A stretch of DNA of 45,069 bases, from positions 1 through 45,069 of the forward strand of contig JBIKVD010000002.1 in assembly GCA_044357055.1 (NCBI GenBank), in the 5' to 3' direction. Below, in pieces: positions 5,392-35,202 of the stretch (the stretch's first letter is position 1; each line of letters opens with the position of its first letter). A program made the translations under genes and the position numbers. The notes under the pieces are model-generated. The model ran no database searches. It was not told where the DNA came from and was given only the letters and a program-made list of their open reading frames with translations. The DNA is from Oligoflexales bacterium. GTDB taxonomy: Bacteria > Bdellovibrionota_B > Oligoflexia > Oligoflexales > JBIKVD01.

Positions 5392-5404
5392 GTAAGTACC
5401 TGAA

Positions 5405-5734
5405 ATGAATGTTATAGATCCCCGCCTAAAATTAATCGCTAAATACCAAGCCAATAATCTCCGATTACTGTCAGAAATGATGAACAATGACTATTGGTCA
5501 AAAGCCAGGTTTTTGGAAGAAATTGACGAGCATTACAGGATGCTATTGAATAACTGGCCAAGGATGTCAAAGACTCGGAGGCTGGAGCAATGGCGGTTAG
5601 CGAAAAAATGGGCAAAGGAAGAGAACATTACCACCCCCAGACGGAATTCAGAATTGAACCGCCTTCCGGACGATCTAAGTCATTTAGGATTAGATTCAAC
5701 TCACCGGCTACCCAGGGCAAATGGGTACCAATAA
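5405..5734 (+). CDS. Hypothetical basic protein overlapping the 5' end of the integrase
   Basis: 109-aa ATG ORF between the att site and the integrase; overlaps it by ~130-145 nt; no recognised motif. Confidence 0.35.
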   Translation: MNVIDPRLKLIAKYQANNLRLLSEMMNNDYWSKARFLEEIDEHYRMLLNNWPRMSKTRRLEQWRLAKKWAKEENITTPRRNSELNRLPDDLSHLGLDSTHRLPRANGYQ

Positions 5735-6756
5735 ACCTACCTGAAATCGATATTGCCAATGACCATTTTAAGTCAGGTTTGGTTTCCAAAGAACACACAA
5801 AAGAGAAATTAAAATTAATCCTCCAAGGGCTCTACGCTGAACGCGATAAAGTTAAGAAAAAGCCCGAATTTCAATCCAAAAACATCGAACTCGTTAAGAA
5901 ACTTTGGGAAGAAAAGTATACCCGAAGACGCCTTAAAACCCTTAAAAGACCAAATGAATCATACAACGATTATATGAGAGCTGCGGAAGCAGTTGGCATG
6001 ATGCCACTAGACACCTGCAATCTTGAAGATCTAGAAGATCATTTACACGACACTCTTGGCGAAAAGCCAACCATTCTACGTCGGCGAATCATATGGATTA
6101 ACTCAATATTGATGTGGCTTGGGCGACCTAAAATTCCCCAATTGAAAAGGATGCCTCGTAAGTCGGTACGCTATCTTACTGAGGATGAGTTTTTCCAAGT
6201 TTACACTCATCTTAATGGCCATCCGTGGGATAGAACATTAGCTAAAATTGCATTTTATACCGGAATGCGAGTAGGAGAGATTTTTGGCCTTTATTCAAAA
6301 GACGTTCTCAAGAATCAGGCTTTGGTCGTTAATCAAATGAAAGCAAAAAGGGAAAATCATAAAGATGACACGACTAAAACTGACTCAGAACGCAGAGTCA
6401 TTATTCTTGACGAAGTAGCGGAAGATCTGAAGAACTGGGTGCAGGTTTCTAATGAAGAACGAGTAAAAATTAGGGATCGCCATTATGCAGATGTCATATC
6501 TAACGCCTGTCTGAAAGCTTTTCCCAAAGATGAGCAAAAACATCTCAATTTTCGCGATCTAAGGCACTGTTGTGCAATTTATATGTTACAAAACGGAATA
6601 CCGATCCATCTAGTGGCCCAACAACTCGGGAATGCTGTAGAAGTTACTGAACGATTTTACTCTGGCTTTATTTTGAAAGAAGAATCTATTGAGTTTATGC
6701 AAATGTTAATTTCAAAAGCCAAGGAAAAGAAAATATCCGAAGATTCTAATCGATAG
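5590..6756 (+). CDS. Tyrosine recombinase / integrase
   Basis: Box I TGMRVGEIFGL, catalytic Lys (TTKT), box II NFRDLRH...VAQQLGN...TERFY; adjacent to a tRNA. Confidence 0.92.
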   Translation: MAVSEKMGKGREHYHPQTEFRIEPPSGRSKSFRIRFNSPATQGKWVPINLPEIDIANDHFKSGLVSKEHTKEKLKLILQGLYAERDKVKKKPEFQSKNIELVKKLWEEKYTRRRLKTLKRPNESYNDYMRAAEAVGMMPLDTCNLEDLEDHLHDTLGEKPTILRRRIIWINSILMWLGRPKIPQLKRMPRKSVRYLTEDEFFQVYTHLNGHPWDRTLAKIAFYTGMRVGEIFGLYSKDVLKNQALVVNQMKAKRENHKDDTTKTDSERRVIILDEVAEDLKNWVQVSNEERVKIRDRHYADVISNACLKAFPKDEQKHLNFRDLRHCCAIYMLQNGIPIHLVAQQLGNAVEVTERFYSGFILKEESIEFMQMLISKAKEKKISEDSNR

Positions 6757-11168: not shown

Positions 11169-11447
11169 ATTTACCTCCAAAATTCTTATTTCTGTTCGTT
11201 ACGTTATTACAAATACTCCTAAATTACAATTGCGATTGCCTCAATAAAAAGGAAGTAATCTTTCCTTTTGCTCAAGATTCTAAATTTTAAAAATTAGGAA
11301 AATTAATCGCGCCTGAGCACATCATCAATAACGATGCTCGACACGAAAATTAGAGGATTCGGAATGCCATAAATAAGCAAAGAGAATTGCAGTATGTACT
11401 GCGGCGGCATTTTTACAGGGGTATGCCAGGCATCAATCATCAGTATG

Positions 11448-12848
11448 TTATTTGACGTTAAAGTCAATTTTCATTGCTGGTGCATTGATGGGAGCTGTTT
11501 TAATGAGTCCAGTGTTGTCTTTTGCTTCTATATAAAAAGAAATACGTGCATTGCGAGGCAAATCAGTCATTTTATAACTATAGGTATTTCCGCCACTGTG
11601 CTCCATTTCAAGATTTGACTGTGGACTGCCATTTACCTCCCAAACAATACTGGGAGTCTCTGCTAAGTCTCGATCCAGGGCAGTAATCACTTCCACTTCA
11701 ATTTCGGCTTCCAGACTTGCAATATTGTCTAAATTGACATGCGGAAAGATAAAGGTTGTATCTTTGCGAAGCAAATTCCTTGCTCGACAGTGGACTGAAT
11801 CACCCCATGACGTGCCATCAGCATCGACCCCAACGATACGGTAGCCGGGCAATGAATTTTGATAAATTTGTTTTGCAGTATTATCGGATGAATCTCCGTA
11901 GAGTGGAAAATACAGGGTTTTGTTACTGATAAACGCATTAATATAGGCACGATAATCTTCCCCAAAGAAACCTTTTTTTACCATGGGCAAACGATAAATT
12001 TTATAAGGTGTCCCATATGGACTGATCAAAGATTTAATTTTCGCGACAAATGCTTCAGAATCTTGCCGATATTTAGAACCTGATGGAAATTCTCCTATGA
12101 CCCATGTGTCTGGCGCCACCAATTTGCCATAAGTATCAATGTGCTCAATCGAGATCCCAGGTCCCAGCTTTGAAGTCGTATAACGCTCAATGCCTAAATA
12201 ATCTAACATTCGGGCGTCAATTTCTTGTCTGGAAAGCTTTGAATTTTCAGAGTAAACAAGAGTTGATGAAAACGCGTTTGCTAACCCATCCGGATAGTAA
12301 TTACCGCCTGCGTGAACCAATCCTGTTTTAAAAAGTGGTACTTTCAATGACTCGGCAACGAATTCTGGGACTTTATCATCAAGGGGCCTTGGTCGATTGT
12401 AAATCGTGTCAACAACTCCAAATTGACCATTGCCGTCAAGAATAAACCATGGTCCATAGTCCCTGACCCAGATGCTATCAGTCGGAACGATACTGAAGGA
12501 AATATTGGCAGAAGGTATCTTGTTTTGATTCAACCAGTTTGACCACCAACTACGATCTGAGCTGCTATCGGCAAGGATAGTAACAGGACCATTACTTTGC
12601 AAAGCTCTGATAAACGACGGATTTGTCCATAAAGTAAAAACTGATTCTGCTTCTTCCCATTCACCTAAAGAATGGATCGGATATTGAGGCATAGGGCTGC
12701 CCGCTATGCGTTGCTCAGGTGAAGCAAACGCTTTTACCATTTCTTCCGGAGCGAGACCAATTGGTAGATTTTTTTGATCAGGCGTTACTGCTAGGGCAGC
12801 ACCCGCGAAGAAAAAAAGTGGAATGATCGAAAATAAATTTCTTGTCAT
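11448..12848 (-). CDS. Secreted agmatine deiminase / Porphyromonas-type peptidylarginine deiminase family protein with C-terminal beta-rich (Ig-like) domain
   Basis: GEWEE, DSIWVRDYGP, GGNY, HIDT, YIN, GDSVHC; signal peptide MTRNLFSIIPLFFFAGAALA; AGGAGG before ATG 12848. Confidence 0.88.
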   Translation of the reverse strand: MTRNLFSIIPLFFFAGAALAVTPDQKNLPIGLAPEEMVKAFASPEQRIAGSPMPQYPIHSLGEWEEAESVFTLWTNPSFIRALQSNGPVTILADSSSDRSWWSNWLNQNKIPSANISFSIVPTDSIWVRDYGPWFILDGNGQFGVVDTIYNRPRPLDDKVPEFVAESLKVPLFKTGLVHAGGNYYPDGLANAFSSTLVYSENSKLSRQEIDARMLDYLGIERYTTSKLGPGISIEHIDTYGKLVAPDTWVIGEFPSGSKYRQDSEAFVAKIKSLISPYGTPYKIYRLPMVKKGFFGEDYRAYINAFISNKTLYFPLYGDSSDNTAKQIYQNSLPGYRIVGVDADGTSWGDSVHCRARNLLRKDTTFIFPHVNLDNIASLEAEIEVEVITALDRDLAETPSIVWEVNGSPQSNLEMEHSGGNTYSYKMTDLPRNARISFYIEAKDNTGLIKTAPINAPAMKIDFNVK

Positions 12849-12980
12849 TGTAGCCTCCTGGATAATCTTTAGGTCTGAAGCAACTTTAGCTAACCCATGA
12901 AAATACATCAAATCAATTGATACATTTGACTACAACATCACACTTCAAGAACGTTTAGGACCATCAATTTAAAAATTGCC

Positions 12981-21387: not shown

Positions 21388-23997
21388 TTATTTTTTGAAA
21401 TAAATGTCTTTGCCTTCTGTCAATGATTTCAAGTTTTGCTTCAGTGCAAATTGCAACCGATCAAGTGCTTTATAGGGACTGTAGTTGAGAGCATAATCTT
21501 TCGATGTATCCTTCATATGGGACACTGAGACTTCCTTAGCGACGTTCTCAAGTAGCATCGATCTCGCGCGCTTTTCATATTCACCCTTTGGCAGCTTATT
21601 AAGCTCTGCCTGCTGTTTCTCCGATAAATCTGGAAAATTGACCGAATTGATAAAGATTTCGTTATCGGCTCGCCCCCTCGACAATGAGACATAAAATCTT
21701 TCCCGGTCCATCAAGTTTCCGTCCACTACCACAAAAGCTTTATCAACCGTCATACTCTGAGACTTATTAGACGTGACGGCATAGCCGTATTTGAAGCCGG
21801 AAAAGGACGCTGGATTAAATTTAATGAGAGTCCCGTCATCCTTCTTAACTGAGATGAAAATAGAATTTACATCGACGACTTCGACAATATCTGAATTGAT
21901 GATACCCTTTGCTTTTCTATTTTCGGTGAAAATTAATCTGTCACCCCTTGCTACCTCAAACTCTGCCCTACCCCTTTTAAAAAAGTAACTTTTACCAAGT
22001 GCACCTTCAGCTTTGAGGTGAGACCGAATTTTCTCATTTAGTCTTCCCACGACGAGATTTGTTGTTGCCAGGATGAGGCTTGTTTTTTGCGGATTTGAGC
22101 TCCTAAACTCCTTCCATCTCTTAAGGATGCTTGCTTCAGCTTCATTTTGGTCTGTTTCGACGTGGAGATAGCCCTTTTTTTCGTAAAATTGGAAAGTTTC
22201 ATCGACCTTCCCTTCCCTGATTCCAAGAATGGTCTTTGCTTCTTCAGGGTCGGACTGACGCCTGACCGTTGAAAGTTCTGATCCATCAAATTTATTCTGG
22301 AGGGTACCAAACATTTGCCCTGCCTCGACAGGTTGAACTTGTTTTGTATCCCCGATAAGCAGCACTTTACAGCCCATTTTTTCGGCCTTGCGAAAGATTC
22401 TGTTGTAATACTTCGAGGCAAGCATCGCAGCCTCATCGACTACGAGAATTTGTTTTCGATTTTGTACACTATTCTTATAAAGAAAGGAGTGAACTGTGGT
22501 GGCATTTATCTTCACATCCCGCTCAATTGTCTGTGCAGCTTTGTGGGTGGGAGCGAGTGCTGTAAGCTTGTGTCCGGTCTGCTCATATATCTTTTCAAGA
22601 TATTGTAGTGCAAATGTTTTTCCACTACCAGCCACCCCTGAGATAAGCGAAATCCCGTCGGTATTTGTGGCCGTCGCAACCACAGTTTGGAGTTGATCTG
22701 GTGAAAGCTTCACCTCTTTACCTAGTAGCTTTGAATGTCGCTCGTTTTCCTCTTTAATAATCTTTTGCACCACATGAAGTTTTATACTGTGGCGATTTTC
22801 ACCGATTCGCCGTTTAAACATCCGGACAGTTTCATCCTCCTCCTGATACTTCCATTTTGTTGTTAGCACGTTATCATCATAGGTTTTTTGAAGGCGTATG
22901 AGATCACTCATCATGCCATGAAAGCTTGATTGAAAAATGTCTCCCGTTGACAGTTTTCCAATCGATCTTTCCGCCATTTTTCTCAGATAGACATAGGCTG
23001 GAAATGTCGATCTTTGGTCTATAATTTCACGCCCTGTGGCCTTGATAAGGTTTTTTCTGAATCGTTTTGATTGCCCTTTGTAGATGAACGTGGAACTGCG
23101 CATGCCTTCAATTTTAGCACTGCTTAGGCCCATTTCCTTGTGTTCCCGGCGCCAAGTTTCGAAATCGACTCGGCTATCTTTGTCGTATTTATTTCTTGTT
23201 ATGAAATTGTATTTTTGCTTAGCAAAGATTGATGCAGAAGATCTGTCGAGGCCTGATTGCTCGGCGAGTTTTTCAATTTCTTTGGACCGGGTTGAGCGAA
23301 AATCGATTAACTTTTGAGACACACCCTTAATTTCAAAACTGTGTTTTGTACGTCTCAGTTCAAATCCGGCGGTCTTAAGCCGGTGCGCAAGTTCTGCTTT
23401 ATAGAGAGCCCCCGCTGCCATTTTTCGTTTATAGTAGTGCGAATATTGCAGAGTTCGAAACTTGCTATCCTCGCAATATGCTACGTTAAACATGATGGCA
23501 TGGGTATGGAGTTGAGGATCACCGGCTCTTGAGGAAGAGTGCTGGAAAAGCGCAAAAATATTCTCAGCCTTCACCTTGATTTTGCCGCCTTTACCAGCTC
23601 TTGAGTGCCCGGATTGATGTTCCAGGTAATCAAGTGCTACCTTTGCCGCCTCGTTATGCGCATTTTCTACTATTTCCTTTGTTTTCTCATTTGCCGTTGC
23701 CCAGACAATCGAAACACTTTTGGGGGCCGAAAATGTGAAATCTACGCCCATTGCATGCTCTTCGCCTGCGTTTTGGACAAGCGCAGTCCCGCTTGGACTA
23801 AAGCCTTGCGCAAGGCGTTCCATAGCAAGCGGCATAACTGTAGCACCATTCAAAGAGCTGCCTGGAAGGCTTGGATCTGATAGCGCATGTGCTCCTCCAC
23901 CGTACCAAACGCCAGGCTTTTCTCCGCCTTCAATGCAGTATTCGGTATAATACTTTACGGCTTCTTTTGAATGCGCCAGTGGCTGAGCAGTAATCAA
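21388..23997 (-). CDS. MOBF relaxase-helicase (TrwC/TraI-like)
   Basis: N-terminal YY, DFTFSAPKSVS, HSSSRAGDPQLHTH; helicase motifs GVAGSGKT, VVDEAAM, YGYAVT..KSQSMT, YVSLSR. Confidence 0.95.
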   Translation of the reverse strand: MITAQPLAHSKEAVKYYTEYCIEGGEKPGVWYGGGAHALSDPSLPGSSLNGATVMPLAMERLAQGFSPSGTALVQNAGEEHAMGVDFTFSAPKSVSIVWATANEKTKEIVENAHNEAAKVALDYLEHQSGHSRAGKGGKIKVKAENIFALFQHSSSRAGDPQLHTHAIMFNVAYCEDSKFRTLQYSHYYKRKMAAGALYKAELAHRLKTAGFELRRTKHSFEIKGVSQKLIDFRSTRSKEIEKLAEQSGLDRSSASIFAKQKYNFITRNKYDKDSRVDFETWRREHKEMGLSSAKIEGMRSSTFIYKGQSKRFRKNLIKATGREIIDQRSTFPAYVYLRKMAERSIGKLSTGDIFQSSFHGMMSDLIRLQKTYDDNVLTTKWKYQEEDETVRMFKRRIGENRHSIKLHVVQKIIKEENERHSKLLGKEVKLSPDQLQTVVATATNTDGISLISGVAGSGKTFALQYLEKIYEQTGHKLTALAPTHKAAQTIERDVKINATTVHSFLYKNSVQNRKQILVVDEAAMLASKYYNRIFRKAEKMGCKVLLIGDTKQVQPVEAGQMFGTLQNKFDGSELSTVRRQSDPEEAKTILGIREGKVDETFQFYEKKGYLHVETDQNEAEASILKRWKEFRSSNPQKTSLILATTNLVVGRLNEKIRSHLKAEGALGKSYFFKRGRAEFEVARGDRLIFTENRKAKGIINSDIVEVVDVNSIFISVKKDDGTLIKFNPASFSGFKYGYAVTSNKSQSMTVDKAFVVVDGNLMDRERFYVSLSRGRADNEIFINSVNFPDLSEKQQAELNKLPKGEYEKRARSMLLENVAKEVSVSHMKDTSKDYALNYSPYKALDRLQFALKQNLKSLTEGKDIYFKK

Positions 23998-25550
23998 ATT
24001 TTGTCCTCAAGGCGAGTTGCTACCCACTTCAGCGCACTTTCAAAGCGCTCCTTTTGCTCTGGTTTTGCGGGACCTTTTCCTAGGTCAGGAACCCCATGCT
24101 GGTCTCTATGTAGAGGAAGGACTTGCGCCCACCTTCTGTGACGAATGCGAAGCTTTACCGGCATGAATGATAGGCTTGAAAGATAAAACCACCCGTCTCG
24201 CAAAGTTTGAATTTCAAATGGCATGACGACTGGCTTTGTTGCCACTGTTTCAGAATAGGAACCACTCGCTCCACTCCTCCCGGAGCTGCGGTTTTTCCTT
24301 AGGACTTCCGAGGACCCGAGCAGTTCAGACATTTCATTTGCATGCTTCGGTTCCTTAATTCTGAAGATGAATTTTGTGCCGATTTGGCCAAGCATCGCCG
24401 AAGCCTCATCGTGGCCATAAAGCTTTCTAAAATAGCTTTCCGATTGGTATGCGAGAATACAGCGCGCCGAGTATTTACGAAGCCGATCCAGAGATTTTCC
24501 AAGATTTTCGATCTTTCCGATCGTCGACACTTCATCGATGATAATGTTAATTTTTGTGTGCTTTTTCGAAGGATTTCTCGCAAAACAGCCAATGATTGCT
24601 AGGTTAAACCAGATCTTAAGAAGTGGTGACATGACGCCAAAGTCATCATCCTTTACCGGAATGAAAATCCAATTTTTGTCATCATTTTGTGTCCAGTCGT
24701 AAATACTAAACGCCGCCTCGTCTCCACGAGCCTTGGCCCAATAGTTCAAATCCTTAAGGAAGCTCAGTTCCATCAGTGCATGCGCAATAATACCTGCAGA
24801 TTGCGGAGTTTTTTTATCTCCGGTGATCGACTTTGCTGTCTCACTTAGGGAATCGAAAATGCTTCCGGCACCCCCTTGAACTAGATCTCTTAGTTCATCT
24901 AGTGAACTGCAGGAATCAATCAGCTGTCTTAGAACAATTCGTGCGCCATTCCACCAAAATTTGTCATGCTCATGGCCTGAGGGCACAAGAAATTCTGCAA
25001 TCTGGGCACTCGAAATTCGCTCTCCGCCCTGTCCCTCCTGATAAGGGTCCCAAAGCCTTGAGCGTTTGTCATAGAGACTTAAAATGTGATCACTTTCGCG
25101 ACCGAGTTCTGAGCAAATTTCGCCACCGACATCAAGAACAATGCACTTTTCTCCCGCAAGTCTTGCCCTTTCCAATAGGGCCTTAATTTGTGTCGATTTG
25201 CCAGCACCTGTGGCGCCAATGAAGGCGACATGGCGATCAAGCACATATTCCCAAATCGAGACTTTTGACTTTCCTCCTGAACATTCAAACGGGACTCCTT
25301 TCATCGCTTTAAGACTCAGTGGCTTGCCCAAATCTTCTTCAATTTCTTTCCGGTATGCGTCGGATTCAGCTTCAATTGCTTTTTGAAACCTTCTAGCCTC
25401 GACAAGCTTTGAACCTCGCAGAAACAGATCCGTATTTTTAGGCTTTTTGTTGTCACGGCTGGCAAGTAACGTGTAGGTCCCGTAGATAAAAATTGCGCAA
25501 ATACATGGCAAAAGAAGGCCGTATGGCCCTACATAATCTAGTAGTGACAT
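23994..25550 (-). CDS. Type IV coupling protein (TrwB/TraD-like)
   Basis: N-terminal transmembrane segment, Walker A GATGAGKS, IIIDEV, RKY...LAYQS; overlaps the relaxase start. Confidence 0.92.
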   Translation of the reverse strand: MSLLDYVGPYGLLLPCICAIFIYGTYTLLASRDNKKPKNTDLFLRGSKLVEARRFQKAIEAESDAYRKEIEEDLGKPLSLKAMKGVPFECSGGKSKVSIWEYVLDRHVAFIGATGAGKSTQIKALLERARLAGEKCIVLDVGGEICSELGRESDHILSLYDKRSRLWDPYQEGQGGERISSAQIAEFLVPSGHEHDKFWWNGARIVLRQLIDSCSSLDELRDLVQGGAGSIFDSLSETAKSITGDKKTPQSAGIIAHALMELSFLKDLNYWAKARGDEAAFSIYDWTQNDDKNWIFIPVKDDDFGVMSPLLKIWFNLAIIGCFARNPSKKHTKINIIIDEVSTIGKIENLGKSLDRLRKYSARCILAYQSESYFRKLYGHDEASAMLGQIGTKFIFRIKEPKHANEMSELLGSSEVLRKNRSSGRSGASGSYSETVATKPVVMPFEIQTLRDGWFYLSSLSFMPVKLRIRHRRWAQVLPLHRDQHGVPDLGKGPAKPEQKERFESALKWVATRLEDKI

Positions 25551-25581
25551 GAGTTATTCCATTAATAATTATGGGTATTTT

Positions 25582-25917
25582 TTAGAGTGACCTTGAGTGT
25601 TTTTCTAGGTAGTCCTCGATGTTACTTAGAGATTTTATTGAAAGCTTGGACCACTCGGCGATTTTGTCGATTCGACTTGCAAGCCCTAAAGTCATTTCAT
25701 AAGTGCCTTGAAACGATTTCACGGCATACTTAAGTTCGCTCATTTCATGAAGCACTGGCTCAAGAGCATGGTGGATTGGATTTGGATTGCGCCCAATTCC
25801 CACCTCAATGAGGGTTGCGATTTCTTTCGACATACTGCGCCTTGTCTTTGAAATTCGCTCCTGAATTAGCTCGTAAAGCTCGTCTGAAACTCGCGCTAAT
25901 ATCGTTTTAGACATCAT
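25582..25917 (-). CDS. Ribbon-helix-helix relaxosome accessory protein (TrwA-like position)
   Basis: AAGGAG then MMSKTILARVSDELYELIQERISKTRRSMSKEIATLIEVGI, an RHH pattern; first gene before the coupling protein and relaxase. Confidence 0.7.
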   Translation of the reverse strand: MMSKTILARVSDELYELIQERISKTRRSMSKEIATLIEVGIGRNPNPIHHALEPVLHEMSELKYAVKSFQGTYEMTLGLASRIDKIAEWSKLSIKSLSNIEDYLEKHSRSL

Positions 25918-26346
25918 CTCTCCTTTGCATTGTGCAAATCGCGAAGTTGCACGTAGCGTGCCTAGAAAAGTGCCCCCCCGAGTTACCCATTTTGTAATAA
26001 GGCATTTGGCTAGCAGTTTTCGGCTCCTGGAACCCATTCCTGTAATAAAGCGTAGCGACCCAATGCACTAGTGTTTTCCCATGATTTCCTGCATTTAGGC
26101 TCTGAACTAAACACCAAAGGTGTCTCAGGTGTGCCGGAGGTCGACCTCATGGGTCGACCGTAGCAGCCCGCAAAAATCGGAGAGACAAAGTCTCTCTCAA
26201 AGAATCCATCTCAGGGCCAAAAATTGAACCGGGCGGATCAAGATTTGAACCGAGGGCATAGAGGCCTGAGACGGAAATCAAGCGCTTAGGACCGGGTACG
26301 GCCCTTGCAATGCGGGGAGTGTCACTACAATGGAAAGGAAAATTGA
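25918..26346 (+). promoter_or_regulatory. Probable oriT with candidate nic site at 26132/26133
   Basis: Divergent intergenic region next to the relaxase operon. ACACC-AAA-GGTGT hairpin followed by CTCAGGTGT^G; further inverted repeats at 26139-26159 and 26180-26196. Confidence 0.65.
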
Positions 26347-26691
26347 ATGAAAGTGAGTGAGGCAAAAACCGGAACGCTACTTCGGAAAGGGCGACCGAAA
26401 ACAGTCGTGATCAGGCTCAAAGAAAGCATTCTTTCTGAACTTGAGGCAAAGAGGATAGATCTATCGAAGCGCTATAAGGCTGAAGTTAGCAGAGATGACC
26501 TCATAAACTCGATCATCTTCAATTCAAGGCTTGAGATCAAAAACCTAGTAAAAGAGGAATCCAAGGTCGTAAAAGTCAAACTTATGGCTACGATGCTTGA
26601 AAAACTGGAGACGCTCTCACAGGGTTCAAGCGTCGACGAGAAAAAGATTCTTATGCAAATGATTGAGCGTGAGATGAACCGAGTTTACTGA
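26347..26691 (+). CDS. Small putative RHH DNA-binding protein
   Basis: GRPKTVVIRLKESILSELE...VSRDDLINSII; AAGGA ribosome-binding site; divergent from the relaxase operon. Confidence 0.6.
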   Translation: MKVSEAKTGTLLRKGRPKTVVIRLKESILSELEAKRIDLSKRYKAEVSRDDLINSIIFNSRLEIKNLVKEESKVVKVKLMATMLEKLETLSQGSSVDEKKILMQMIEREMNRVY

Positions 26692-27425
26692 AGCCACTTG
26701 TTGACATCGATCATTAGCGACTTCAGGTCGGCTGGGAGATCTTTAAAGACTTTTGAGTAAGCGGTCCATCTTGTCTGCATGTCGGAGCTTACCCATTCTA
26801 CGAGTAACTTGGGCTCTATCGAACGCTCGGACAAGATAGCCGATAGCTTTCTTCGGTCGATTAATCGACCTGACTGGGCGATACGCCAAAGATCGTCGTA
26901 GTCCTTGAGCCGAGTGTTGCCGGATACAAATCGCCAAGCTGCCGCGAGCTTATCTGCAATAATGTTCTCAATGGAGGCTGCTACGATGTCGGGTCTATCT
27001 CCAACAGGTGAGGGAATTGTGGTGGTGTCGACTGGCGCCTTATAGACAATATCAATGTCAAATCGGTTCGCTGCACCGCCCTCTGCTACAAACCGGATCG
27101 TAACCGCAGCCCCTACTTCGCCAACTTCTTTAAATTTTTCGACCGAGAATTTGAGAGCGGGATCAGGATTTTCGCAAACTCGCTCGATAAGCCTTCTCAC
27201 TTCGTCGTGAGTACCGCTACTGAGGGTGCTAAAATCCAAATCTACCGTCGGACGAGGAGTCTTGATGTAAACCCACAGGAGGTTACCACCCTTTAGAACG
27301 AAGTCTTTGGATTCCAGGTTAAGTCGTTGAACGAAGGAGAATATTATGAATTTGAAAAATGCTTGGGGACCGTGTAGACCTTGTTCTCGTTTCCATTTCC
27401 CTGCTCTGGTTATCAATTTACTCAT
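26685..27425 (-). CDS. abiEii: AbiEii-family nucleotidyltransferase toxin (type IV toxin-antitoxin)
   Basis: FVLKGG, RPTVDLDF, ENIIADKL, TRLKDYDDL. Confidence 0.9.
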   Translation of the reverse strand: MSKLITRAGKWKREQGLHGPQAFFKFIIFSFVQRLNLESKDFVLKGGNLLWVYIKTPRPTVDLDFSTLSSGTHDEVRRLIERVCENPDPALKFSVEKFKEVGEVGAAVTIRFVAEGGAANRFDIDIVYKAPVDTTTIPSPVGDRPDIVAASIENIIADKLAAAWRFVSGNTRLKDYDDLWRIAQSGRLIDRRKLSAILSERSIEPKLLVEWVSSDMQTRWTAYSKVFKDLPADLKSLMIDVNKWLQ

Positions 27426-28011
27426 CAGCTAGCTCCTGAGCGAGGTGGAATACGACTTTCGTGCCAAGTTTCTCATCGTAAAACCGCAATTTGTCGATAT
27501 TTGGCTTTCGGTCCTTAAGCTTGAGGTATCGTTTTAAAGCTTTATAAAACAAGGGACCGGCTTTGCTTCGCAGGTATGCATCCGAAAGGGAGCGTTCCAT
27601 GTCATATATCCGAATCACATGAGAGTGATAATGCATCTCAGTAATTCCAACGAGCCTATGGTCTGGAACCCTGTGGGCGTTTACAAGTTTATTGCGTATT
27701 GACGTCGCCCTGGGAATGTCGACGTCAATTTTATGAATTGCTTCATCCGTCAGCTCATAAATCGAGAGCGCTGTGATATTTGAAATCACAGCATTAGGAA
27801 AGTATTTCGACACTGCGAGCACTGAGGATATGAAGGGATCCAGTTTTATCGTGCTGTAATAGCCACTGCCAAGCGCAAAGATCTCTCCCTGATCTGCAAG
27901 TCTTCCCAGAACACTTGTCTGCGACACATAGGGTTCGAGCTCGCCTGCGGACATGACCAGCTCGTTACCTAGAGTCTCTATCAAAAGCTTCTTGTTAGTC
28001 ATCTTAGCCAT
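27418..28011 (-). CDS. abiEi: AbiEi-family antitoxin / transcriptional regulator
   Basis: N-terminal wHTH ending in G.Y, AVISNITALSIYELTD, IRIYDMERSLSD; overlaps the toxin gene. Confidence 0.88.
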   Translation of the reverse strand: MAKMTNKKLLIETLGNELVMSAGELEPYVSQTSVLGRLADQGEIFALGSGYYSTIKLDPFISSVLAVSKYFPNAVISNITALSIYELTDEAIHKIDVDIPRATSIRNKLVNAHRVPDHRLVGITEMHYHSHVIRIYDMERSLSDAYLRSKAGPLFYKALKRYLKLKDRKPNIDKLRFYDEKLGTKVVFHLAQELADE

Positions 28012-28020: not shown

Positions 28021-28096
28021 TTACCACACTATCGGTATTTTGTGGTAATAAATTTACATAATTTTTGTTACCACATCAGTTCATTATTGTGGTAAC
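28021..28096. promoter_or_regulatory. Two TTACCACA-N12-TGTGGTAA inverted repeats; probable AbiEi operators
   Basis: IR1 at 28021-28048 and IR2 at 28067-28096, directly upstream of abiEi. Confidence 0.85.
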
Positions 28097-28125: not shown

Positions 28126-28668
28126 TCAGCCAAATACCTGGTCTCGAAGGGATCCAGAACGCTCTGCCCTAGAAACCAAGGTCTTAAAGCTTTGACCCGG
28201 TGGAAGCACTTTTGAGCCAAACTTCTGCCGGATTTCGTCCATCGAAAAAGGAACCACGTACTTTCTTCGAGCCTTCTGGTGCTCAGGCCGGAAATACCAC
28301 ATATGTTTTCTTGGAGCCCAGTCGTAGCCAGCCTCCTTCAAGACTGCCTTATGGCGTTCGGTTGATCCTGAAATCCAAATCCAGACTCCGCATATTTCAA
28401 TCGTGATCCCCTCTAAGACCGCCACGGCCCGAACTGCCTTCTCAAGGGACGATGTGATGCCCAAATCGCCCAGCGAATTCTTAAATGGGCCAGAAAACCT
28501 TTTTAAGACCTCATAGGCATTCTCCACAATCTGCATCATGTGTATCCCGACCGGACTAAAGCTTGGGTCATACTCAAAAGCCTTTTTTTGATATGCCGCC
28601 CTGATCTCTGGGGCAGTGACGTGATCAGAGTGTAGACCCAAGATTTGAAGTGCTTCAGAAATTTGCAT
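28126..28668 (-). CDS. J-domain-like protein (HPD replaced by YDP) with C-terminal aromatic domain
   Basis: EALQILGL...EIRAAYQKKAFEYDP...MQIVENAYEVLK, then IEICGVWIWISG...LKEAGYDWAPRKHMWY; AAGGAG before ATG 28668. Confidence 0.75.
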   Translation of the reverse strand: MQISEALQILGLHSDHVTAPEIRAAYQKKAFEYDPSFSPVGIHMMQIVENAYEVLKRFSGPFKNSLGDLGITSSLEKAVRAVAVLEGITIEICGVWIWISGSTERHKAVLKEAGYDWAPRKHMWYFRPEHQKARRKYVVPFSMDEIRQKFGSKVLPPGQSFKTLVSRAERSGSLRDQVFG

Positions 28669-28693
28669 AGTTATTCTCCTTAATTTAGTTTTT

Positions 28694-29047
28694 TTAGTAG
28701 TCAAATTCGGATTCGAAATCGCTTAAGTATTCAAAAAGTCCCTGCTCGATGGTAAGAGCCTCGAAATAGAGCCGATCAAACACCCGAGCTAGTCTTTCTT
28801 GCTTCTCTTTTAGGACCTCTGGCTCGCCTGAAAGCGCTTCATGCATCGCCCTTTCCAGGTCGATAAATTTTTGCTCAATCTCACTTCTCGTCGCACCCAT
28901 GTCCTCTAGGGCTTCTGTCGCTTCATGCACACGCATTGTTTCTCCCCTCTCCCGTGTTAATTGCCAAAAAGCCATTCTCTTGAGTTGGAGCCCCTGCCCG
29001 CCGGCGAGGCATTCATGCAAATTTCTGTGAGTTGACAATTGGTTCAT
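28694..29047 (-). CDS. Hypothetical acidic helical protein
   Basis: Strong AAGGAGG site before ATG 29047 (alternative start 28937); Glu-rich. Confidence 0.6.
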   Translation of the reverse strand: MNQLSTHRNLHECLAGGQGLQLKRMAFWQLTRERGETMRVHEATEALEDMGATRSEIEQKFIDLERAMHEALSGEPEVLKEKQERLARVFDRLYFEALTIEQGLFEYLSDFESEFDY

Positions 29048-29075
29048 CCTAGCTCCTCCTTTCTCATTCTCCGTC

Positions 29076-29346
29076 GCCGTATGCCCCTGAGCATTCGTGA
29101 GCCAGACGGCATAGAAACGAGTGGCAAGGCCGAGGACGAAGGACGAGTGCATTTCAGCCTTGCGCGAGTTTCGCCGGCTGGCAGAATGCGAGGAAAAGGG
29201 CAAGGTGATCGGGGAATGAATGGGAGGAGCGGGGTATCAACCGGTCGACGAATTTCGTGACATGCTTAAATCTGGGGGGCTGGCGCCAGGAGTATTCTTC
29301 CCCCCTTTAGTGATCGAAAGGGGGGCCAGGGGGGTATGAGAAGAAA
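29076..29346. repeat. Dispersed direct repeat, copy 1, containing a ~100-nt imperfect hairpin (Frpo-like)
   Basis: Colinear with 33805-34001; last 60 bp match at 59/60. Confidence 0.92.
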
Positions 29347-29348
29347 AA

Positions 29349-30296
29349 TTAAATTGTTAGACGCCAGCCAAAGCTATCAATTCCATGGCTAAGGCCTTCT
29401 TTTAGTGTCAAACCACCGAGGTCCGGTTTATTCATTTTAGCTTTGTAGGTTTCGAACTCATCTTGATTTGCAAAAAACAACATTTCATCACATGAGGGAC
29501 CGCCAGAGACAATAGTCTCGCTACTATCGCCTTCAAGTATCTTGTTTCCGTCGATCCTAATGACCAGATCACTTTGAAGAAGAGCAGATTTCGCAGCTAT
29601 CGTGATAGGTTTACCAAACATTGCCGAAATACCTAAAGCATCAATTGCACATCGTGCGTAGGCTGGCTTTTTGCCGTCAATTGTCACGATGACACCGAGG
29701 TTATCACTCGCGAATGGCCAAAGCCATTTTATACGGTCCGAATCTTTGTAAAATATTCCCGGTCTATTTTCTTTTAAATTCGCCCTAATATCCTCAGCGC
29801 CTAGTGAACTAAATCCATCGATTTTTCTAACTTCCTGATGGATTTCTTCAATGGTTGGAGCGCGACCAAGCTCTGGCCATAGGAGGTATATAGTTTTGAT
29901 TTCAGTTTTCAAAAGTGGAGGGAGGGCTCGATATTCAGCTTCAACCACCTTCGGATCGACACAGTTAGTTTGTTTGAAAGCAAAAACTGAACTTACAACT
30001 AATAATCCACCTACAGCGAGACCCACGAGCGATGATTTAAGTGGTTTACCTTGCCTATTAACGTTTCGTATAACAACGAACGAAAAAAATGCTGCCAATA
30101 TGAGCAGTGGTATTTTAAACATAGGTAGCCATATCGAGAGCGTACCTAGTCCGATACTTGCTAAAAAAGCCGCAAGTGGGAAAGCAAGACCACTGCATGC
30201 AGCCCCACAAAATCCGGTCAGCCCTAAGAGCCCAATGGACCCACCAGCGAAAGAGCCTACGATCTTGTTATTTTTTAGCCAAGCTTTTAGACCCAT
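29349..30296 (-). CDS. Membrane-anchored organomercurial lyase (MerB)-like fusion protein
   Basis: Hydrophobic N-terminus with FCGAAC; GRAPTIEEI; WPFA, YARCAIDALG, SCDEMLFF match the MerB Cys/Asp/Cys pattern. Confidence 0.75.
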   Translation of the reverse strand: MGLKAWLKNNKIVGSFAGGSIGLLGLTGFCGAACSGLAFPLAAFLASIGLGTLSIWLPMFKIPLLILAAFFSFVVIRNVNRQGKPLKSSLVGLAVGGLLVVSSVFAFKQTNCVDPKVVEAEYRALPPLLKTEIKTIYLLWPELGRAPTIEEIHQEVRKIDGFSSLGAEDIRANLKENRPGIFYKDSDRIKWLWPFASDNLGVIVTIDGKKPAYARCAIDALGISAMFGKPITIAAKSALLQSDLVIRIDGNKILEGDSSETIVSGGPSCDEMLFFANQDEFETYKAKMNKPDLGGLTLKEGLSHGIDSFGWRLTI

Positions 30297-30298
30297 AT

Positions 30299-30565
30299 CT
30301 ATCTCCCTTGAAGTTCTAATATTTTTTCTTCAAGCTCATTTGAGCTTGGGATTCTAACTGTACATCCAGCTCCTCCGACTTTTCCTCCAAAAACGATGTT
30401 TCCTTTTAAAAGAAGTGTAGGAGATGAAAAAGCTGCTAGAGGGTCATTCTCTTCGAGCCTTCCCTGATCAATTTCGTCGAACATCAAATTGGACGACTTT
30501 AAAAGTTCTTTAGCAACGCTGTAATTAGGGCATCCTTCAAAGTAAATCAGTGTTAAATTTTCCAC
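30299..30565 (-). CDS. Small thioredoxin/glutaredoxin-fold protein
   Basis: YFEGCPNY, FSSPTLL, distal Cys (GCT); lies between merR and the merB-like gene. Confidence 0.75.
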   Translation of the reverse strand: MENLTLIYFEGCPNYSVAKELLKSSNLMFDEIDQGRLEENDPLAAFSSPTLLLKGNIVFGGKVGGAGCTVRIPSSNELEEKILELQGR

Positions 30566-30566
30566 C

Positions 30567-30980
30567 TTAATGCTCCAACTTTTCTATTATTGGACAACAG
30601 CCATCAGATTTTGCTTTTTTACAGTCCAAAATTAATTCGCTCAAATTTTCTTCTATAGATTTTAGTTGAGTTATCTTCTTTTTAATCTCAGAAAGCTTAC
30701 TTTCAGCTCGAACTCTCACCTTTTCGCATTTTTCAGCATTCAAAAATCTAAGTTCGAGCAAATCCTCAATTTCTTTAAGCTGAAAGCCAAGATCTTTAGC
30801 CTGAATGATGAAGCGAAGTTTTTTGACAGAATGTGAATCATAACTTCTATATCCAGAATCATTTCGATCGATAGGAGCAAAAAATCCAAGTCGCTCATAA
30901 TAGCGAATTGTTTGAATATTGACGCCAACCTCTTTTGCTAACTGACCAATCGTAAACATGTTTTTATTCCCAGTGCTCAT
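30567..30980 (-). CDS. merR: MerR-family metal-responsive regulator (Hg/Cd/Zn-type Cys pattern)
   Basis: TIGQLAKEVGVNIQTIRYYER, LGFQLKEI, EKCEKV, DC...CCPII. Confidence 0.88.
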   Translation of the reverse strand: MSTGNKNMFTIGQLAKEVGVNIQTIRYYERLGFFAPIDRNDSGYRSYDSHSVKKLRFIIQAKDLGFQLKEIEDLLELRFLNAEKCEKVRVRAESKLSEIKKKITQLKSIEENLSELILDCKKAKSDGCCPIIEKLEH

Positions 30981-30988
30981 AGTTAACG

Positions 30989-31020
30989 AGTTTACACCTT
31001 GTACCTAGGTATAAGGTCAA
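30989..31020 (-). promoter_or_regulatory. MerR-type promoter/operator
   Basis: TTGACC-20 bp-TAAACT with a 22-bp dyad ACCTTGTACCT/AGGTATAAGGT at 30996-31017 (1 mismatch). Confidence 0.88.
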
Positions 31021-31212
31021 TAGAAAAGAAAAATCTTTTTGGCGTCAAATTGTCCAGACCCCTACCGCAAAAGACCTTCGGCAACCCAGAAGGCAAGGCC
31101 GCATGCATTTTAGTGAACAAAGACTTGTAAGGCAGGCATAAGAAAAAGGATTTCAAATGAAGATTTAAGGAGATTTCTGTAGCACCGATTAACCAATTGA
31201 TCGGAGGATAGA

Positions 31213-32181
31213 ATGTTTCCTACAGACGATGAACTTTACAACCTGGTCATTGCTAAATTTAAAGATGGCACTTGCTGGAATGTAAGAGCATTAAACTTGC
31301 TCATGGATGAAGGAGCATTTCGTGCTGATCATTTGGATTCCCATTATCAAGCTGCAAATGTTCAGGCAAAGACACTCGACAGTGAATTACAGAACAAAAT
31401 ATCTGCATGCCTTTACCGGTCTTTAAATGACTTAGGATTTCTTTACGCAGCTCTTTCCCATCCCGAGCAGCATAAAGTTTTTTTGAAACTGGGTATTGTA
31501 GCGTTTTATTACGCAATGAATCAGAGCTTATCTGCATGTCTTCTCGCATATCACAAAGTTGCCCCTAATCAGCATAAGCAGACAGCCGATATTTGAACAA
31601 ATTCGATATCTCATCTTTTTCCCTATCCGTTGAATCTAAAAATCAAGAATATTACCAGTAAGGGACTCAACATTTTTGTTGAGTCTAATCCGAAGCGATT
31701 ACAAAACGATAACAAATGTCCTGAATCCATAGAGTCTGCAAAAAGAAGGTATAATTCTTTTTTGTTTGGCACTGCTCGCGATAGATACGAAAATTTAACG
31801 GAAAAGGTGAAAGAGAAGTTTAAAGTCGAGGAACTCAGATCGACTAGAATCAATCCAAAAGCTAAGGATGCGAGGATTGAACTGCAACGCTTGGCCAGCA
31901 ACGAAGTCGTAGGCGTCTTGCATTGCCTTTACCGAATGAGGATCAAAGCGCAGTACAAGGATGCAGTATATTTGGGTTTCAATTTGCAAGGAGATTACTA
32001 CCAATCAATGTCAAAAGATCTGCTTAAAGATATGATAGACATTACAAATAAAACATTCACCGCTTGCCATCGTTACTGCGTTATGAGAACCGGTAATGAT
32101 GAGATTCTTAAATTAAGCGACATGGAAAAGTCTTCATTTGATATCTCGCCTACTGTCCTTGACTTATTTAAAATCGGATAA
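31213..32181 (+). pseudogene. Single ~322-codon HEPN-like gene split by an in-frame TGA
   Basis: ORFs 31213-31596 and 31630-32181 share a frame with only TGA 31594-31596 between them (ADI*TNSISHLFPYPLNL). Motifs FYYAMNQ and LYRMRIKAQY. Confidence 0.65.
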
Positions 32182-32203
32182 ATAATCAAAAAGAAAAATG
32201 CTG

Positions 32204-32671
32204 TCAAATCCAGCGTCTTGTCCGATGACGATAGTTATTATATTCGTCCCCAAACTTAGCTTCGAGATAGCACTCCTCTCTCTTTATGACGTAATAATTA
32301 ATAATGCCCACAAAAACTAGAATCATTAAAACCATCGTTAGACTATTTACCCAAATAGAAATTCCAAGCCCGATGAGTGCCATTGCAAGATACATCGGGT
32401 TTCGAGTGATCTTATAGATTCCGCTCGTTACAATTTTTGTCGTACTCTTCCACGGTTTAACATCAGTTCCCGCTTTTCGAAAAAGCCCTGCAGCGGAAAG
32501 TATAATGACAATACCTATGACTAAGAGCGAGATTCCAAGCCACATTTGCATCCCCTCGGGAACCACTGATTGATGAAAGATGGAATTAAGACCAAACCCA
32601 ATAATCAAACAGGTTAGAAGTATGAGAGGCGGAGGGAACTTGATTTTTGCGCTGTCTTCATCGATCTTCAT
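32204..32671 (-). CDS. Isoprenylcysteine carboxylmethyltransferase (Ste14/ICMT) family membrane protein
   Basis: FPPP, IVTSGIYKITRNPMYL, REE..LEAKFGDEY..Y...TRRW. Confidence 0.9.
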   Translation of the reverse strand: MKIDEDSAKIKFPPPLILLTCLIIGFGLNSIFHQSVVPEGMQMWLGISLLVIGIVIILSAAGLFRKAGTDVKPWKSTTKIVTSGIYKITRNPMYLAMALIGLGISIWVNSLTMVLMILVFVGIINYYVIKREECYLEAKFGDEYNNYRHRTRRWI

Positions 32672-33004
32672 GAATACCTCAGTCAAAAAATATGTCCCTA
32701 GCATAGCTTTGGCTGGCTGCTCTGCGACAAAGCAGTTCTAACGCGCTTAATTGCTAAAAAGAGCTACCTTTGGGTCTCCTGTATGTGCCCCAAGCAGCTA
32801 TAATTAAAGATTTTTATTAAAATGTCGAGGAAAAGATAATACAAATGAGTCAATGCCCAGGGCCCTAGCAGGTTAAAATTTCTGCCGTCGATTTTTCAAA
32901 ATCACAGCAATGATTCCGCCTGCGCTTGAGGTTGGCGTCGCGAAAGTCAATTATAAAATTATTCTGAACTTATTTTAACGAAATCTTTGGGATGAATGTA
33001 AGTT

Positions 33005-33565
33005 ATGAAGAATAAAACAGAGCGCTCCGCCAAACTAAAATTTGGAGTCTTTTCTTTTTCAATTGCTATTTTGTTGCTGGGGTATATTTCATTTGGTTTT
33101 TGGACGATGATGATATTTACCTCCGGCTTCTTGGGTGGATTTCTTTTATGGCTGTTGTTTCCAACGCAAGCTTCTTACGGACAGATTAAAGACCCATATT
33201 GGTTATCGTTGGGGCTTTTTGTATTGCACCGTATAGAGGAAAAACTATCTGGATTCTTTCAAGTTTTGTCGGAGATTACTGGCTCCCACACTCCGCGGGT
33301 TGACTCTTGGAATGTGATTTTATTGGTATTACTTTCGGTGGGAGCTTGGCTATCCATTCCGCTACTTATTAAAAGAAAATCTGAGGTTGGATATTATTTG
33401 GCATGGACGTTTTTTGCCGCAATGGGAATCACAGAACTTGCCCATTGGTTGGTTTTGCCATTTTTTTTGGAAAATTCTTATAGGTACTTTCCGGGTATGA
33501 TTAGTGTAGTCCCATTGGCCCCAGTCGGCTGGTGGGGCATGTGGCGGCTCTACAAAGGGAGATGA
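33005..33565 (+). CDS. HXXEE-domain membrane protein
   Basis: LHRIEE, ELAH, YFPGM; about 6 transmembrane segments. Confidence 0.75.
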   Translation: MKNKTERSAKLKFGVFSFSIAILLLGYISFGFWTMMIFTSGFLGGFLLWLLFPTQASYGQIKDPYWLSLGLFVLHRIEEKLSGFFQVLSEITGSHTPRVDSWNVILLVLLSVGAWLSIPLLIKRKSEVGYYLAWTFFAAMGITELAHWLVLPFFLENSYRYFPGMISVVPLAPVGWWGMWRLYKGR

Positions 33566-33804
33566 GTATTGGTCACAGCGCTTGCTAATCTTGTACATTA
33601 CCAAGAATCCACCTCGAATCAGAATTCAAGACTGCGACACCTGATGACAAGCTACTGGGGAATTTAAGTATCCCGGGAGTAAAAGATCCTCGATGCCTAT
33701 GACCAGATTACGTGTGTAGTACACGCCTATTAAACCGAAGTGTTTGTATACTTCGCAGTTTTTTGGAAAAAGACTAGCCAATCGAAAAGTTTTGTCATTT
33801 CATC

Positions 33805-34001
33805 CGCCCTATGTCCCCTGAGTATTCGTGAGCCAGACCTCGTAGAAAAGGACAAGGCGATCGGGGAATGAAAGGAAGGAGCGGTGCGCTAACCGGCCGG
33901 CGAATTTCGCAACATGCCAAAATTTTGGGGGGGGCTTGCGTCAGGAGTATTCTTCCCCCTTTTAGTGATCGAAAGGGGGGCCAGGGGGGTATGAGAAGAA
34001 A
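33805..34001. repeat. Dispersed direct repeat, copy 2 (internal ~80-bp deletion)
   Basis: Matches 29076-29117, then resumes at about 29195-29346. Confidence 0.92.
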
Positions 34002-34010: not shown

Positions 34011-34982
34011 TTAAGGAGGATTCGTTCTGGTAGGATCAATGAAAGCCGAAACGTGTTCATAAATGACCCAAGTTCCAATTTCAGGTACTTGGATGATGAA
34101 ATTTGAATGATCACCGCAGTGATGCCTGCAAATAAGAAAATTAGTATTTATCTCGAGTAACAACTCCTCAAAACCTTCAATCCCATGGATTTCGACATAA
34201 GCCTGGGCCACGTTCATAAGACTTGAAGTTGCAAGGAAGCTCGCTGTATCAGCATGCATAATGGTGGGTCCCCATGCTGGCAATTTATCGGCCCGATGTT
34301 TGTATCCACCAAGACTGACATATGAGCTGTGCGTATAGTTTGAAGTTATTTTGTAAACACTGTAGTAGTGCTCCACCCGATCAATTGCAATTGCCATTTC
34401 CTTTGTATGCAAACCGGACCATGATCGACCTATAGATCCATATTTTTTCTTATATTCTTGTTCAGAGGCTGTCAGTCGTTGAGCAAGACTTGGAGAAACG
34501 AGACTCTCAAGATTATCGCTTTCTCTCCCTCTATTATGCTTAAATTTCTCAATTTCTGCCCAATCTCTAAATCTTTGTACTCTTGAAATATCTGCCGCAA
34601 TGTATTCAAGGCTTAATTCTGTATCGGTCAAATTCCGAAGCATCGCCAGAGCATCTTGGTCATGACCGATATGAAGCAAGACTCTAACCGACTCGTAAGT
34701 CTTCATTGATCTGACCAAATGTAAATGCGTGACATCTGCAAGGTCAGAATTCTTTGTAACGTCGGGTCGATCTAATAAAGCCGATATCAATTTAAAAACA
34801 TTGGTCATCAAAAAGTCATAAACTTTTAGACCTTCGGCAATCTGACCTCGAGCCTCTTGAAGTATTTTTAGATGTTCCCTGCCCTTTTCATGTAGGGGCA
34901 TTGTTTTTCCCTGGAAACTCGAATTGTCTTTCATAAAGAACCTTTTTAAGAATGCAATCAAACTGGCTATTAGCTTACACAC
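34011..34982 (-). CDS. DUF5677-like helical protein
   Basis: ALAMLRNLTDTELSLEYI, WSG, YYSVYKITSNYTH; start codon uncertain. Confidence 0.65.
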   Translation of the reverse strand: MCKLIASLIAFLKRFFMKDNSSFQGKTMPLHEKGREHLKILQEARGQIAEGLKVYDFLMTNVFKLISALLDRPDVTKNSDLADVTHLHLVRSMKTYESVRVLLHIGHDQDALAMLRNLTDTELSLEYIAADISRVQRFRDWAEIEKFKHNRGRESDNLESLVSPSLAQRLTASEQEYKKKYGSIGRSWSGLHTKEMAIAIDRVEHYYSVYKITSNYTHSSYVSLGGYKHRADKLPAWGPTIMHADTASFLATSSLMNVAQAYVEIHGIEGFEELLLEINTNFLICRHHCGDHSNFIIQVPEIGTWVIYEHVSAFIDPTRTNPP

Positions 34983-35202
34983 GAAAATCCACCCGGATTA
35001 AAAACTGAACTCGATGGTTCAAAATTTGAACCGTGATCTCCCAAATTAACCCATCAAAATTATATCATATCCAGCATAACTATATGATTTTACAGACTTC
35101 AGTATAGTCATTTCAGCTTCCCGCCAAATCGGCACAAAGCTTGTAATAACGCTTCCATCGCCTGGGGGAATTGCCCCCCGCCGCAAGACAAGGAAGCGCT
35201 CC

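Follow-up and report, generated by a model that had tools for sequence, protein, structure and literature searches.

The window analysed here, a stretch of 45,069 nt from an Oligoflexales bacterium, contains a conjugative element integrated at a tRNA gene. This element carries two copies of a non-coding direct repeat, copy 1 at 29060-29346 and copy 2 at 33791-34001, both read on the minus strand, and the repeat is best understood as a control module upstream of an origin-proximal operon in the predicted leading region, not as a dedicated gene-swapping site.

The repeat and its genetic setting

The copies were delimited by BLAST without the low-complexity filter and by an nhmmer profile, which upheld the direct repeats placed at 29076-29346 and 33805-34001 in a preliminary description of the locus and widened their homology. 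A repeat search of the window resolves three direct blocks, collinear between the copies, of 73 nt at 96% identity (29274-29346 versus 33929-34001), 98 nt at 78% (29182-29279 versus 33834-33931) and 34 nt at 88% (29084-29117 versus 33815-33848). The first block is the conserved core, placed by this search and by pairwise alignment and not assigned to a strand. In the alignment 70/73 of its positions are identical, against 101/133 of the remaining columns (Fisher p = 1.6e-4), and a 35-nt core string that is present twice in the window occurs in 0/100 shuffles. The match of 59/60 claimed for the terminal 60 nt holds, as does the divergence of the rest, and the hairpin reported there is likewise present as the inverted repeat C6TTT-8 nt-AAAG6, whose stem has 9 bp in copy 1 and 8 bp in copy 2, the sole mismatch of the terminal 60 nt falling within it. 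The core also carries two more G6 runs and an outer TTCTTC/GAAGAA inverted repeat, and the core hairpin alone has a stability ordinary for its composition (z -0.7 to -1.7).

Copy 2 is without 77-79 nt of copy 1, a gap bounded by the similar short strings GCCAGAC.. and GGCAGAA.. The missing segment comprises the apex of the long hairpin of copy 1 (see below) and the partner of the ribosome-binding site in that hairpin; the core and the lower parts of both hairpin arms are retained. Copy 1 appears to be the intact version and copy 2 a truncated relic that has lost the hairpin apex and the downstream gene. The copies differ by 22 transitions and 14 transversions, and by eye the differences are not centred on one base; on these grounds a template/variable pair of a diversity-generating retroelement was rejected.

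Copy 1 occupies the entire intergenic space between the stop codon of a MerB-domain gene and the ribosome-binding site of a 117-aa open reading frame (ORF). The latter (28694-29047, minus strand) lies directly downstream of copy 1 and has a strong GGAGGAG ribosome-binding site at 29053-29059. Its product has no homologue in two large protein libraries, three other matches being short stretches of low identity in long proteins. Next in the same string, domain searches place a J-domain protein gene (28126-28704, minus strand), whose product has a C-terminal HTH and beyond which lie a gene for a 197-aa protein without a family match (27418-28011, minus strand) and an AbiEii-type toxin gene (26685-27425, minus strand; E 7.7e-22). 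The last two would form a toxin-antitoxin pair in the predicted leading region, the partner role of the 197-aa protein being judged from its position. The gap upstream of this pair (28021-28096) contains two copies of an inverted repeat, TTACCACA..TGTGGTAA, which looks like an autoregulation operator of toxin-antitoxin genes.

On their other side the copies adjoin different genes, ending, at the distances first reported, 2 nt from the stop of the MerB-domain gene (29349-30296, minus strand; 315 aa, with MerB in the C-terminal third, E 4e-11) and 9 nt from that of a DUF5677 gene (34011-34982, minus strand; 40.3% G+C). The 4.44-kb block between the copies (29347-33790, strands mixed) has 40.0% G+C compared with 44.5-46.6% for the transfer backbone, and it is probably cargo acquired later. 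In addition to the MerB-domain gene it contains an 88-aa ORF, a MerR gene (E 3e-18), two + strand ORFs, a PEMT/ICMT-type methyltransferase gene (E 5.6e-17) and a gene with a weak match to HXXEE. Of the cargo named in the preliminary description, the mer-like operon and the ICMT gene have their counterparts in the MerR, MerB-domain and PEMT/ICMT genes; the HXXEE assignment is weak (22.9 bits, under the curated cut-off of 25). The HEPN-like pseudogene proposed there did not stand: 33566-33790 is without a long frame, and neither of the short ORFs tested (33362-33604 and 33626-33781) matches a Pfam or PHROG family. Downstream of copy 2 there is non-coding DNA up to the convergent HXXEE gene, and copy 2 heads no ORF.

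The host element can be followed from the start of the window, where dnaG and rpoD are succeeded by a tRNA gene (5247-5320) and a tyrosine integrase gene (5590-6756), and where G+C falls from about 48% to 39-43%. The tRNA-integrase junction (5247-6756) is likely the left end of the conjugative element, with the right end beyond the window. After the integrase come cargo genes for a methyltransferase, two proteins of arginine-deiminase type, and metal and RND efflux; the arginine-deiminase-type genes, PAD (E 5e-25) and PAD_porph (E 3e-30), adjoin each other at 9513-12911 beside the CDF, P-type ATPase and RND efflux genes. The DNA-processing operon (21388-25917, minus strand) comprises a small RHH-like ORF (25582-25917; 111 aa; a weak match, E 0.012) and, from domain searches, genes for a coupling protein (23994-25550) and a TrwC/MOBF relaxase (21388-23997). 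It reads away from a gap of 430 nt (25918-26346), which gene order and a nick-like motif make the candidate for the transfer origin (+ strand). This gap has a small + strand hairpin at about 26110-26135, ACACC-AAA-GGTGT, followed after 9 nt by GGTGT|G, and in a G+C-corrected scan of 200-nt windows it is the second most stable on the + strand. Beyond the DUF5677 gene, a divergent operon for type IV secretion (VirB11, SSB-like, TrbI, VirB4) runs on the + strand. Between that gene and the secretion operon, at 35001-35200, is the most stable 200-nt minus-strand fold of the window (residual z -3.85).

The order along the minus strand is thus DUF5677, copy 2, cargo, copy 1, 117-aa ORF, J-domain gene, AbiE pair, candidate origin, RHH-like ORF, coupling protein and relaxase. 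In the F plasmid record the leading genes, oriT and tra genes follow one another on one strand, with the nick motif on the opposite strand. Because the window's minus-strand order and the motif at 26110-26135 resemble F, we infer that the + strand is the transferred strand. The DNA to the right of about 26.13 kb would then be the leading region, and the minus-strand genes in it would be templated by the predicted transferred strand. Copy 1 lies 2.9-3.2 kb and copy 2 7.7-7.9 kb from the candidate nick, and the copies are 4.65 kb apart.

Folding of the copies

In the minimum-energy DNA fold, the + strand of copy 1 makes 74 pairs in one long imperfect hairpin (29041-29242). Its base helix (29041-29060 against 29222-29242) joins the distal GGAGGAG-containing stretch GGGAGGAG...CAACC to the sequence complementary to the 117-aa ORF's start codon and ribosome-binding site. 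The fold has an energy of -47.0 kcal/mol as compared with -40.1 kcal/mol for the mRNA-sense strand, and a DNA z of -4.76 as compared with -2.74. In the G+C-corrected scan the + strand segment 29041-29240 is the most stable of 2244 windows (residual z -4.78); the 16 windows listed for the minus strand do not include it. When 301 nt of the + strand at copy 1 are folded as single-stranded DNA, the result is a long stem-loop like those of the F plasmid Frpo and the IncI ssi elements, at -63.9 kcal/mol (z -4.5). The F controls, folded with the same tool on their transferred strand, give -63.7 kcal/mol (z -5.1) for Frpo2 and -62.6 kcal/mol (z -4.0) for Frpo1.

In a search of RNA families at the gathering score the window yields tRNA only. 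Matches on the repeats at permissive settings were far below threshold and to eukaryotic small nucleolar and long non-coding RNAs, and were set aside as noise.

Distribution of the repeat and sister elements

By BLAST, nhmmer and pattern search alike, the assembly of the host genome (4.37 Mb, 505 contigs, 83% complete) contains no more than two copies. If as many as 2 mismatches are allowed, the 21-nt core string occurs in 1/131 phylum genomes, which is the window's own, and the whole 271-nt copy compared with the same genomes gives the self-match and three chance-level matches of 20-26 nt (E 0.002-0.009). The possibility raised in the preliminary description, that the core is an ordinary repetitive extragenic palindromic (REP)-like repeat, is not borne out, because there are only two copies in the genome and none in the 130 other phylum genomes or in PLSDB. 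A 35-mer of the core was not found in a general collection of genome contigs, nor a 21-mer in viral contigs. Scanning metagenomes with the 21-mer returned two contigs, L027 and L028, which were treated as unrelated, since beyond the searched string they share no more than a short G/C-run hairpin with the window. At 5410-5520 L028 has about 90 nt of almost pure G and C runs inside an otherwise ordinary high-G+C contig, possibly an assembly artefact or a small insertion.

Runs of six are uncommon in the genome (455 of G6, 434 of C6), and G6 runs paired at up to 5 nt apart occur three times, twice in the repeat copies. Other G-run/C-run hairpins are present: a 5.5-kb contig of the same genome (G000 contig C373) has three about 1 kb apart, at about 2074, 3074 and 4193, and others elsewhere, such as that on C168 at 7902 with its flanking A and T runs, are terminator-like. 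The organism is known from metagenomes only. Six sequencing runs contain at least half of the sampled words of the stretch, one of which may be where this DNA came from; no RNA run is listed among those with the stretch. In runs X2-X5, which are lake-water metagenomes, it is present as identical short contigs at a depth of about 3-7, several of which break in or beside the repeats, as would be expected from shared 31-mers.

Protein searches give no close relatives of the element for comparison. The coupling protein has no close relative in the genome-contig collection, and the relaxase has some match in 57/131 phylum genomes at up to 37% identity, and below 30% among the plasmid matches listed. 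A second, distant MOBF-type relaxase match (28-30% identity) on another contig of the genome (G000 contig C218, 20972-23191) suggests a further conjugative element there. Three sister elements in the phylum, with relaxases about 34-37% identical, have the same overall layout: L034 (G068:C189), L029 (G068:C31) and L031 (G064:C485). These carry a non-coding repeat of their own of about 300 nt between the relaxase and secretion operons, with two copies in L034 and one each in L029 and L031, the four being 73-90% identical. No homology to the window repeat was found; an ATGCGAG heptamer at a similar place in both is within chance by a rough estimate and was discounted. The two repeats are alike in placement between the relaxase and secretion operons, in orientation, in length of about 300 nt, in a hairpin closed on a ribosome-binding site and in a number of one or two copies, but the sister repeat drives ssb paralogues and is without the G/C-run core and recognisable homology.

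In L034 an ssb paralogue (Pfam SSB, E 6e-15 and 9e-12) follows directly on each copy, and copy a heads the string ssb, 93-aa ORF and ArdC (anti-restriction), which points to the origin side. The second copy is accompanied by its own ssb paralogue (about 67% nucleotide identity over repeat and gene start), so that the sister repeat moves as a promoter-plus-gene unit. By analogy this points to a promoter or leader module over a cassette boundary. The sister repeats fold with z of -4.5 to -5.1 on the template strand versus -2.0 to -3.2 on the other. Their G-T pairs are strongly biased to the template strand (8:1, 6:2 and 10:1), in copies that are related and hence not independent, and 12/80 consensus pairs, including the base helix over the ribosome-binding site, are kept through changes on both sides. 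L034 also has, at 5192-5581, three tandem units of about 154 nt a few hundred nt upstream of its operon of RHH-like ORF, coupling protein and relaxase; they could be part of a transfer origin or an array of protein-binding sites.

A proposed single-strand promoter and competing explanations

The repeat is tentatively identified as an Frpo/ssi-like single-strand promoter or leader module, the functional counterpart of the promoters of F and IncI plasmids. In F, Frpo1 and Frpo2 are 92% identical, about 5 kb apart and both required for early expression (PMC9849209). Frpo homologues number 13,089 in 6,006 elements; Frpo-like sequences stand immediately upstream of SSB, and the leading-region genes for anti-defence functions, methylases, SSB and toxin-antitoxin pairs are oriented for transcription off the transferred strand (PMC11541004). 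Six hairpin promoters of three sequence-unrelated classes were described in pESBL from a sliding-window DNA fold with confirmation by 5' rapid amplification of cDNA ends (PMC12672017). The window repeat resembles Frpo and the ssi1-3 elements of ColIb-P9/pESBL as a non-coding direct repeat of a few hundred nt, located in what is predicted to be the leading region and upstream of co-oriented genes that the transferred strand would template. The likeness to F extends to two copies about 5 kb apart and some 2-3 and 7.5-8 kb from the nick, a candidate in the window; in the F record the distances to the nick are 2.1-2.7 and 7.5-8.1 kb, and the spacing between the repeats is 5.39 kb. It extends also to the long imperfect hairpin, with the same fold energy and z by the same tool, and to uneven identity along the repeat (95%, 90% and 77% in successive blocks of F, 96% and about 76% in the window). 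The likeness to ssi and CUP leading-region repeats suggested in the preliminary description is borne out in predicted position, orientation, spacing and folding.

The differences from Frpo/ssi are nevertheless several. The window repeat has no sequence similarity to them and no convincing -35/-10 pair in its stem, its hairpin base includes the ribosome-binding site and start codon, its best-conserved part, the G/C-run core, is outside the hairpin, and one copy is truncated and gene-less. It belongs to an integrated element of a little-sampled phylum, and the genes it would serve are an orphan ORF, a J-domain gene and AbiE genes as against ssb, psiB and ardA.

If the repeat acts as a single-strand promoter, transfer would begin at the origin near 26.1 kb, with the + strand first into the recipient. 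Copy 1 on the incoming single strand would fold into its imperfect hairpin of roughly 200 nt, and RNA polymerase would start on the duplex-like stem, its transcript extending leftwards over the 117-aa ORF and the J-domain gene to the AbiE pair. This leftward transcription would precede complementary-strand synthesis. To our knowledge no single-strand promoter has been described so far in this phylum, and experimental proof of such promoters is limited to enterobacterial F and IncI plasmids. If the present reading is right, the same trick would be at work, with unrelated sequences, in conjugative elements integrated in genomes of an under-sampled freshwater phylum, with the closing of the hairpin on the ribosome-binding site adding a possible translational layer. 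The orphan 117-aa protein, the J-domain protein and the AbiE pair would be flagged as likely 'first-in' establishment genes, and a cargo block between homologous repeats would be explained without a new recombination system.

A number of observations weigh against a single-strand promoter. The promoter scan finds no site inside the repeat, although it is likewise blank on the F Frpo2 control, and the best -35/-10 pair found by eye in the stem (TTGCGC-16-CAGAAT, in the 3' arm at 29160-29187) is weak. No match to the element was found among 72,556 PLSDB plasmids, F included (blastn, word size 11). The origin and the transferred strand are themselves predictions. The G-T pairs of copy 1 are divided 4:1 between the + and mRNA-sense strands, a bias that is not significant (p = 0.375), and RNA parameters give the two strands similar scores (z -6.7 and -7.1), so that the fold cannot tell action as DNA from action as mRNA. 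The base of the copy 1 hairpin covers the ribosome-binding site and start codon, whereas the F hairpin begins about 120 nt from the ssb start, and this arrangement fits a switch at the mRNA level equally well. The core, the best-conserved part, is of ordinary stability and lies outside the long hairpin. Copy 2 folds no better than shuffles (z about 0) and forms no long stem-loop, and, as there is no gene that it could drive, it cannot function as a promoter. A second explanation is consequently needed for the near-identity of its core: the copies may have undergone gene conversion, or the core may be a site recognised by its sequence, by RNA polymerase or a regulator, that works even where no gene follows.

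It is possible, if on balance doubtful, that the repeat is instead a double-strand promoter and operator joined to a structured mRNA leader, in the manner of the CUP repeats of IncN plasmids. The core would then contain a weak promoter, with the 9-8-9 inverted repeat lying over it as the operator for a dimeric repressor, the mRNA hairpin would hide the ribosome-binding site and start codon, and copy 2 would be a duplicated control region minus its gene. This would account for the preservation of the core (70/73), the perfect inverted repeat of 9 bp with a spacer of 8 bp, which could be an operator, and the ordinary stability of the core, which fits recognition at the sequence level. It would also suit the highly significant RNA fold of the mRNA strand (z -5.4 to -7.1), in which, at the base of the hairpin, mRNA-sense CUCCUCC is paired to GGAGGAG, and GGUUGAU to AUGAACC. 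The sister-family hairpin, which likewise closes on a ribosome-binding site and in one copy shows changes on both sides there, would agree with it too. CUP repeats stand at the 5' ends of co-oriented leading and maintenance operons, have a conserved promoter-proximal core and each comprise a promoter and an ArdK site, with insertions, deletions and recombination documented among them (PMC5371602). A Bacillus plasmid likewise has repeated, repressor-controlled establishment promoters (PMC6294495). Unlike CUPs, which have a defined double-strand promoter and ArdK-binding site, the window repeat holds no promoter-like site at the scanner threshold, and a by-eye candidate in the core (TTTCGA-17-AATACT) scores 7/12. 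The sole minus-strand site (29380-29353) is outside the repeat, in the last part of the gene that precedes copy 1, which is not repeated, and was treated as chance; by eye the corresponding stretch before copy 2 is only loosely similar to it. No repressor candidate was identified, a search for an ArdK homologue not having been made. The DNA folds favour the template strand, strongly in the sister family, and of the two copies only copy 1 heads an operon, copy 2 having none to control.

That the copies are cassette boundaries, as first proposed, is improbable. Cargo would be gained or lost at the core, through a site-specific enzyme or homologous exchange between elements that share the repeat, and the abutting of unrelated genes on the same end of both copies (2 and 9 nt), the 40% G+C of the block and the DUF5677 gene against a backbone of about 45-47%, which suggests foreign origin, the significantly higher identity of the core (p = 1.6e-4) and the varying copy number (2, 1, 1) of the analogous sister repeat would all agree with it. 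There is, however, no recombinase in or beside the block, the sole integrase (5590-6756) being 23 kb off at the tRNA, and no integrase in 26-35 kb that would make an array of integron type. The copies, at 211-287 nt, are far longer than typical recombination sites, integron cassette sites included. The extra sister copy arrives with a paralogous ssb, as a duplicated promoter-gene unit and no bare boundary. Runs X2-X5 show no joints, circles, or empty or alternative alleles, although contigs of such low depth neither support nor exclude excision. Little probability likewise attaches to a neutral relic, an intergenic duplication that came with acquisition of the block, its cores kept alike by recent gene conversion and its hairpin at most a transcription stop. 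The truncated and gene-less copy 2, the patchy identity of the F repeats and the existence of other G-run/C-run hairpins in the genome, at least one with terminator-like flanking A and T runs, would suit such a history, but no T-run follows the core hairpin on either strand, the scanner calls no intrinsic terminator in the repeat, and the hairpin of copy 1 is the extreme outlier of the window, which is not predicted for a relic. Least probable of all, and very unlikely, is that the core mimics a nick site of the MOBF relaxase, as a hairpin with a G-rich run ending in T some 9-10 nt beyond it, making the copies secondary or pseudo-origins for recombination or for starting or stopping transfer. 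TrwC-type relaxases can drive recombination between two origins, and on the + strand the core hairpin is followed by CCAGGGGGGT, in the layout of the F nick region (hairpin, 9 nt, GGGGTGT|GG) and in an orientation that agrees with the predicted transferred strand. The likeness rests on few bases, the candidate at 26110-26135 is better placed, directly upstream of the operon of RHH-like ORF, coupling protein and relaxase, and the repeats of the sister elements have nothing comparable.

Under the single-strand promoter reading, the homology of the copies might still allow them to recombine, as has been said of Frpo1 and Frpo2, through which the intervening F segment could be deleted (PMC9849209), and of CUP repeats (PMC5371602). 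Homologous recombination might thereby delete the inter-copy block, as a by-product rather than the purpose of the element.

The single-strand promoter and the mRNA leader may also both hold, in a two-state switch that is unlikely in its full form. The stem would serve as promoter on the single strand and would hide the ribosome-binding site in read-through mRNA, enforcing transient expression. On the single strand, initiation inside the stem would give an mRNA with one arm and a free ribosome-binding site; from the duplex, a read-through transcript from upstream would carry both arms and refold, burying the ribosome-binding site and start codon. If this were so, the hairpin closed on a ribosome-binding site, which recurs with unrelated sequence before sister ssb-ardC, would be a lineage-wide solution.

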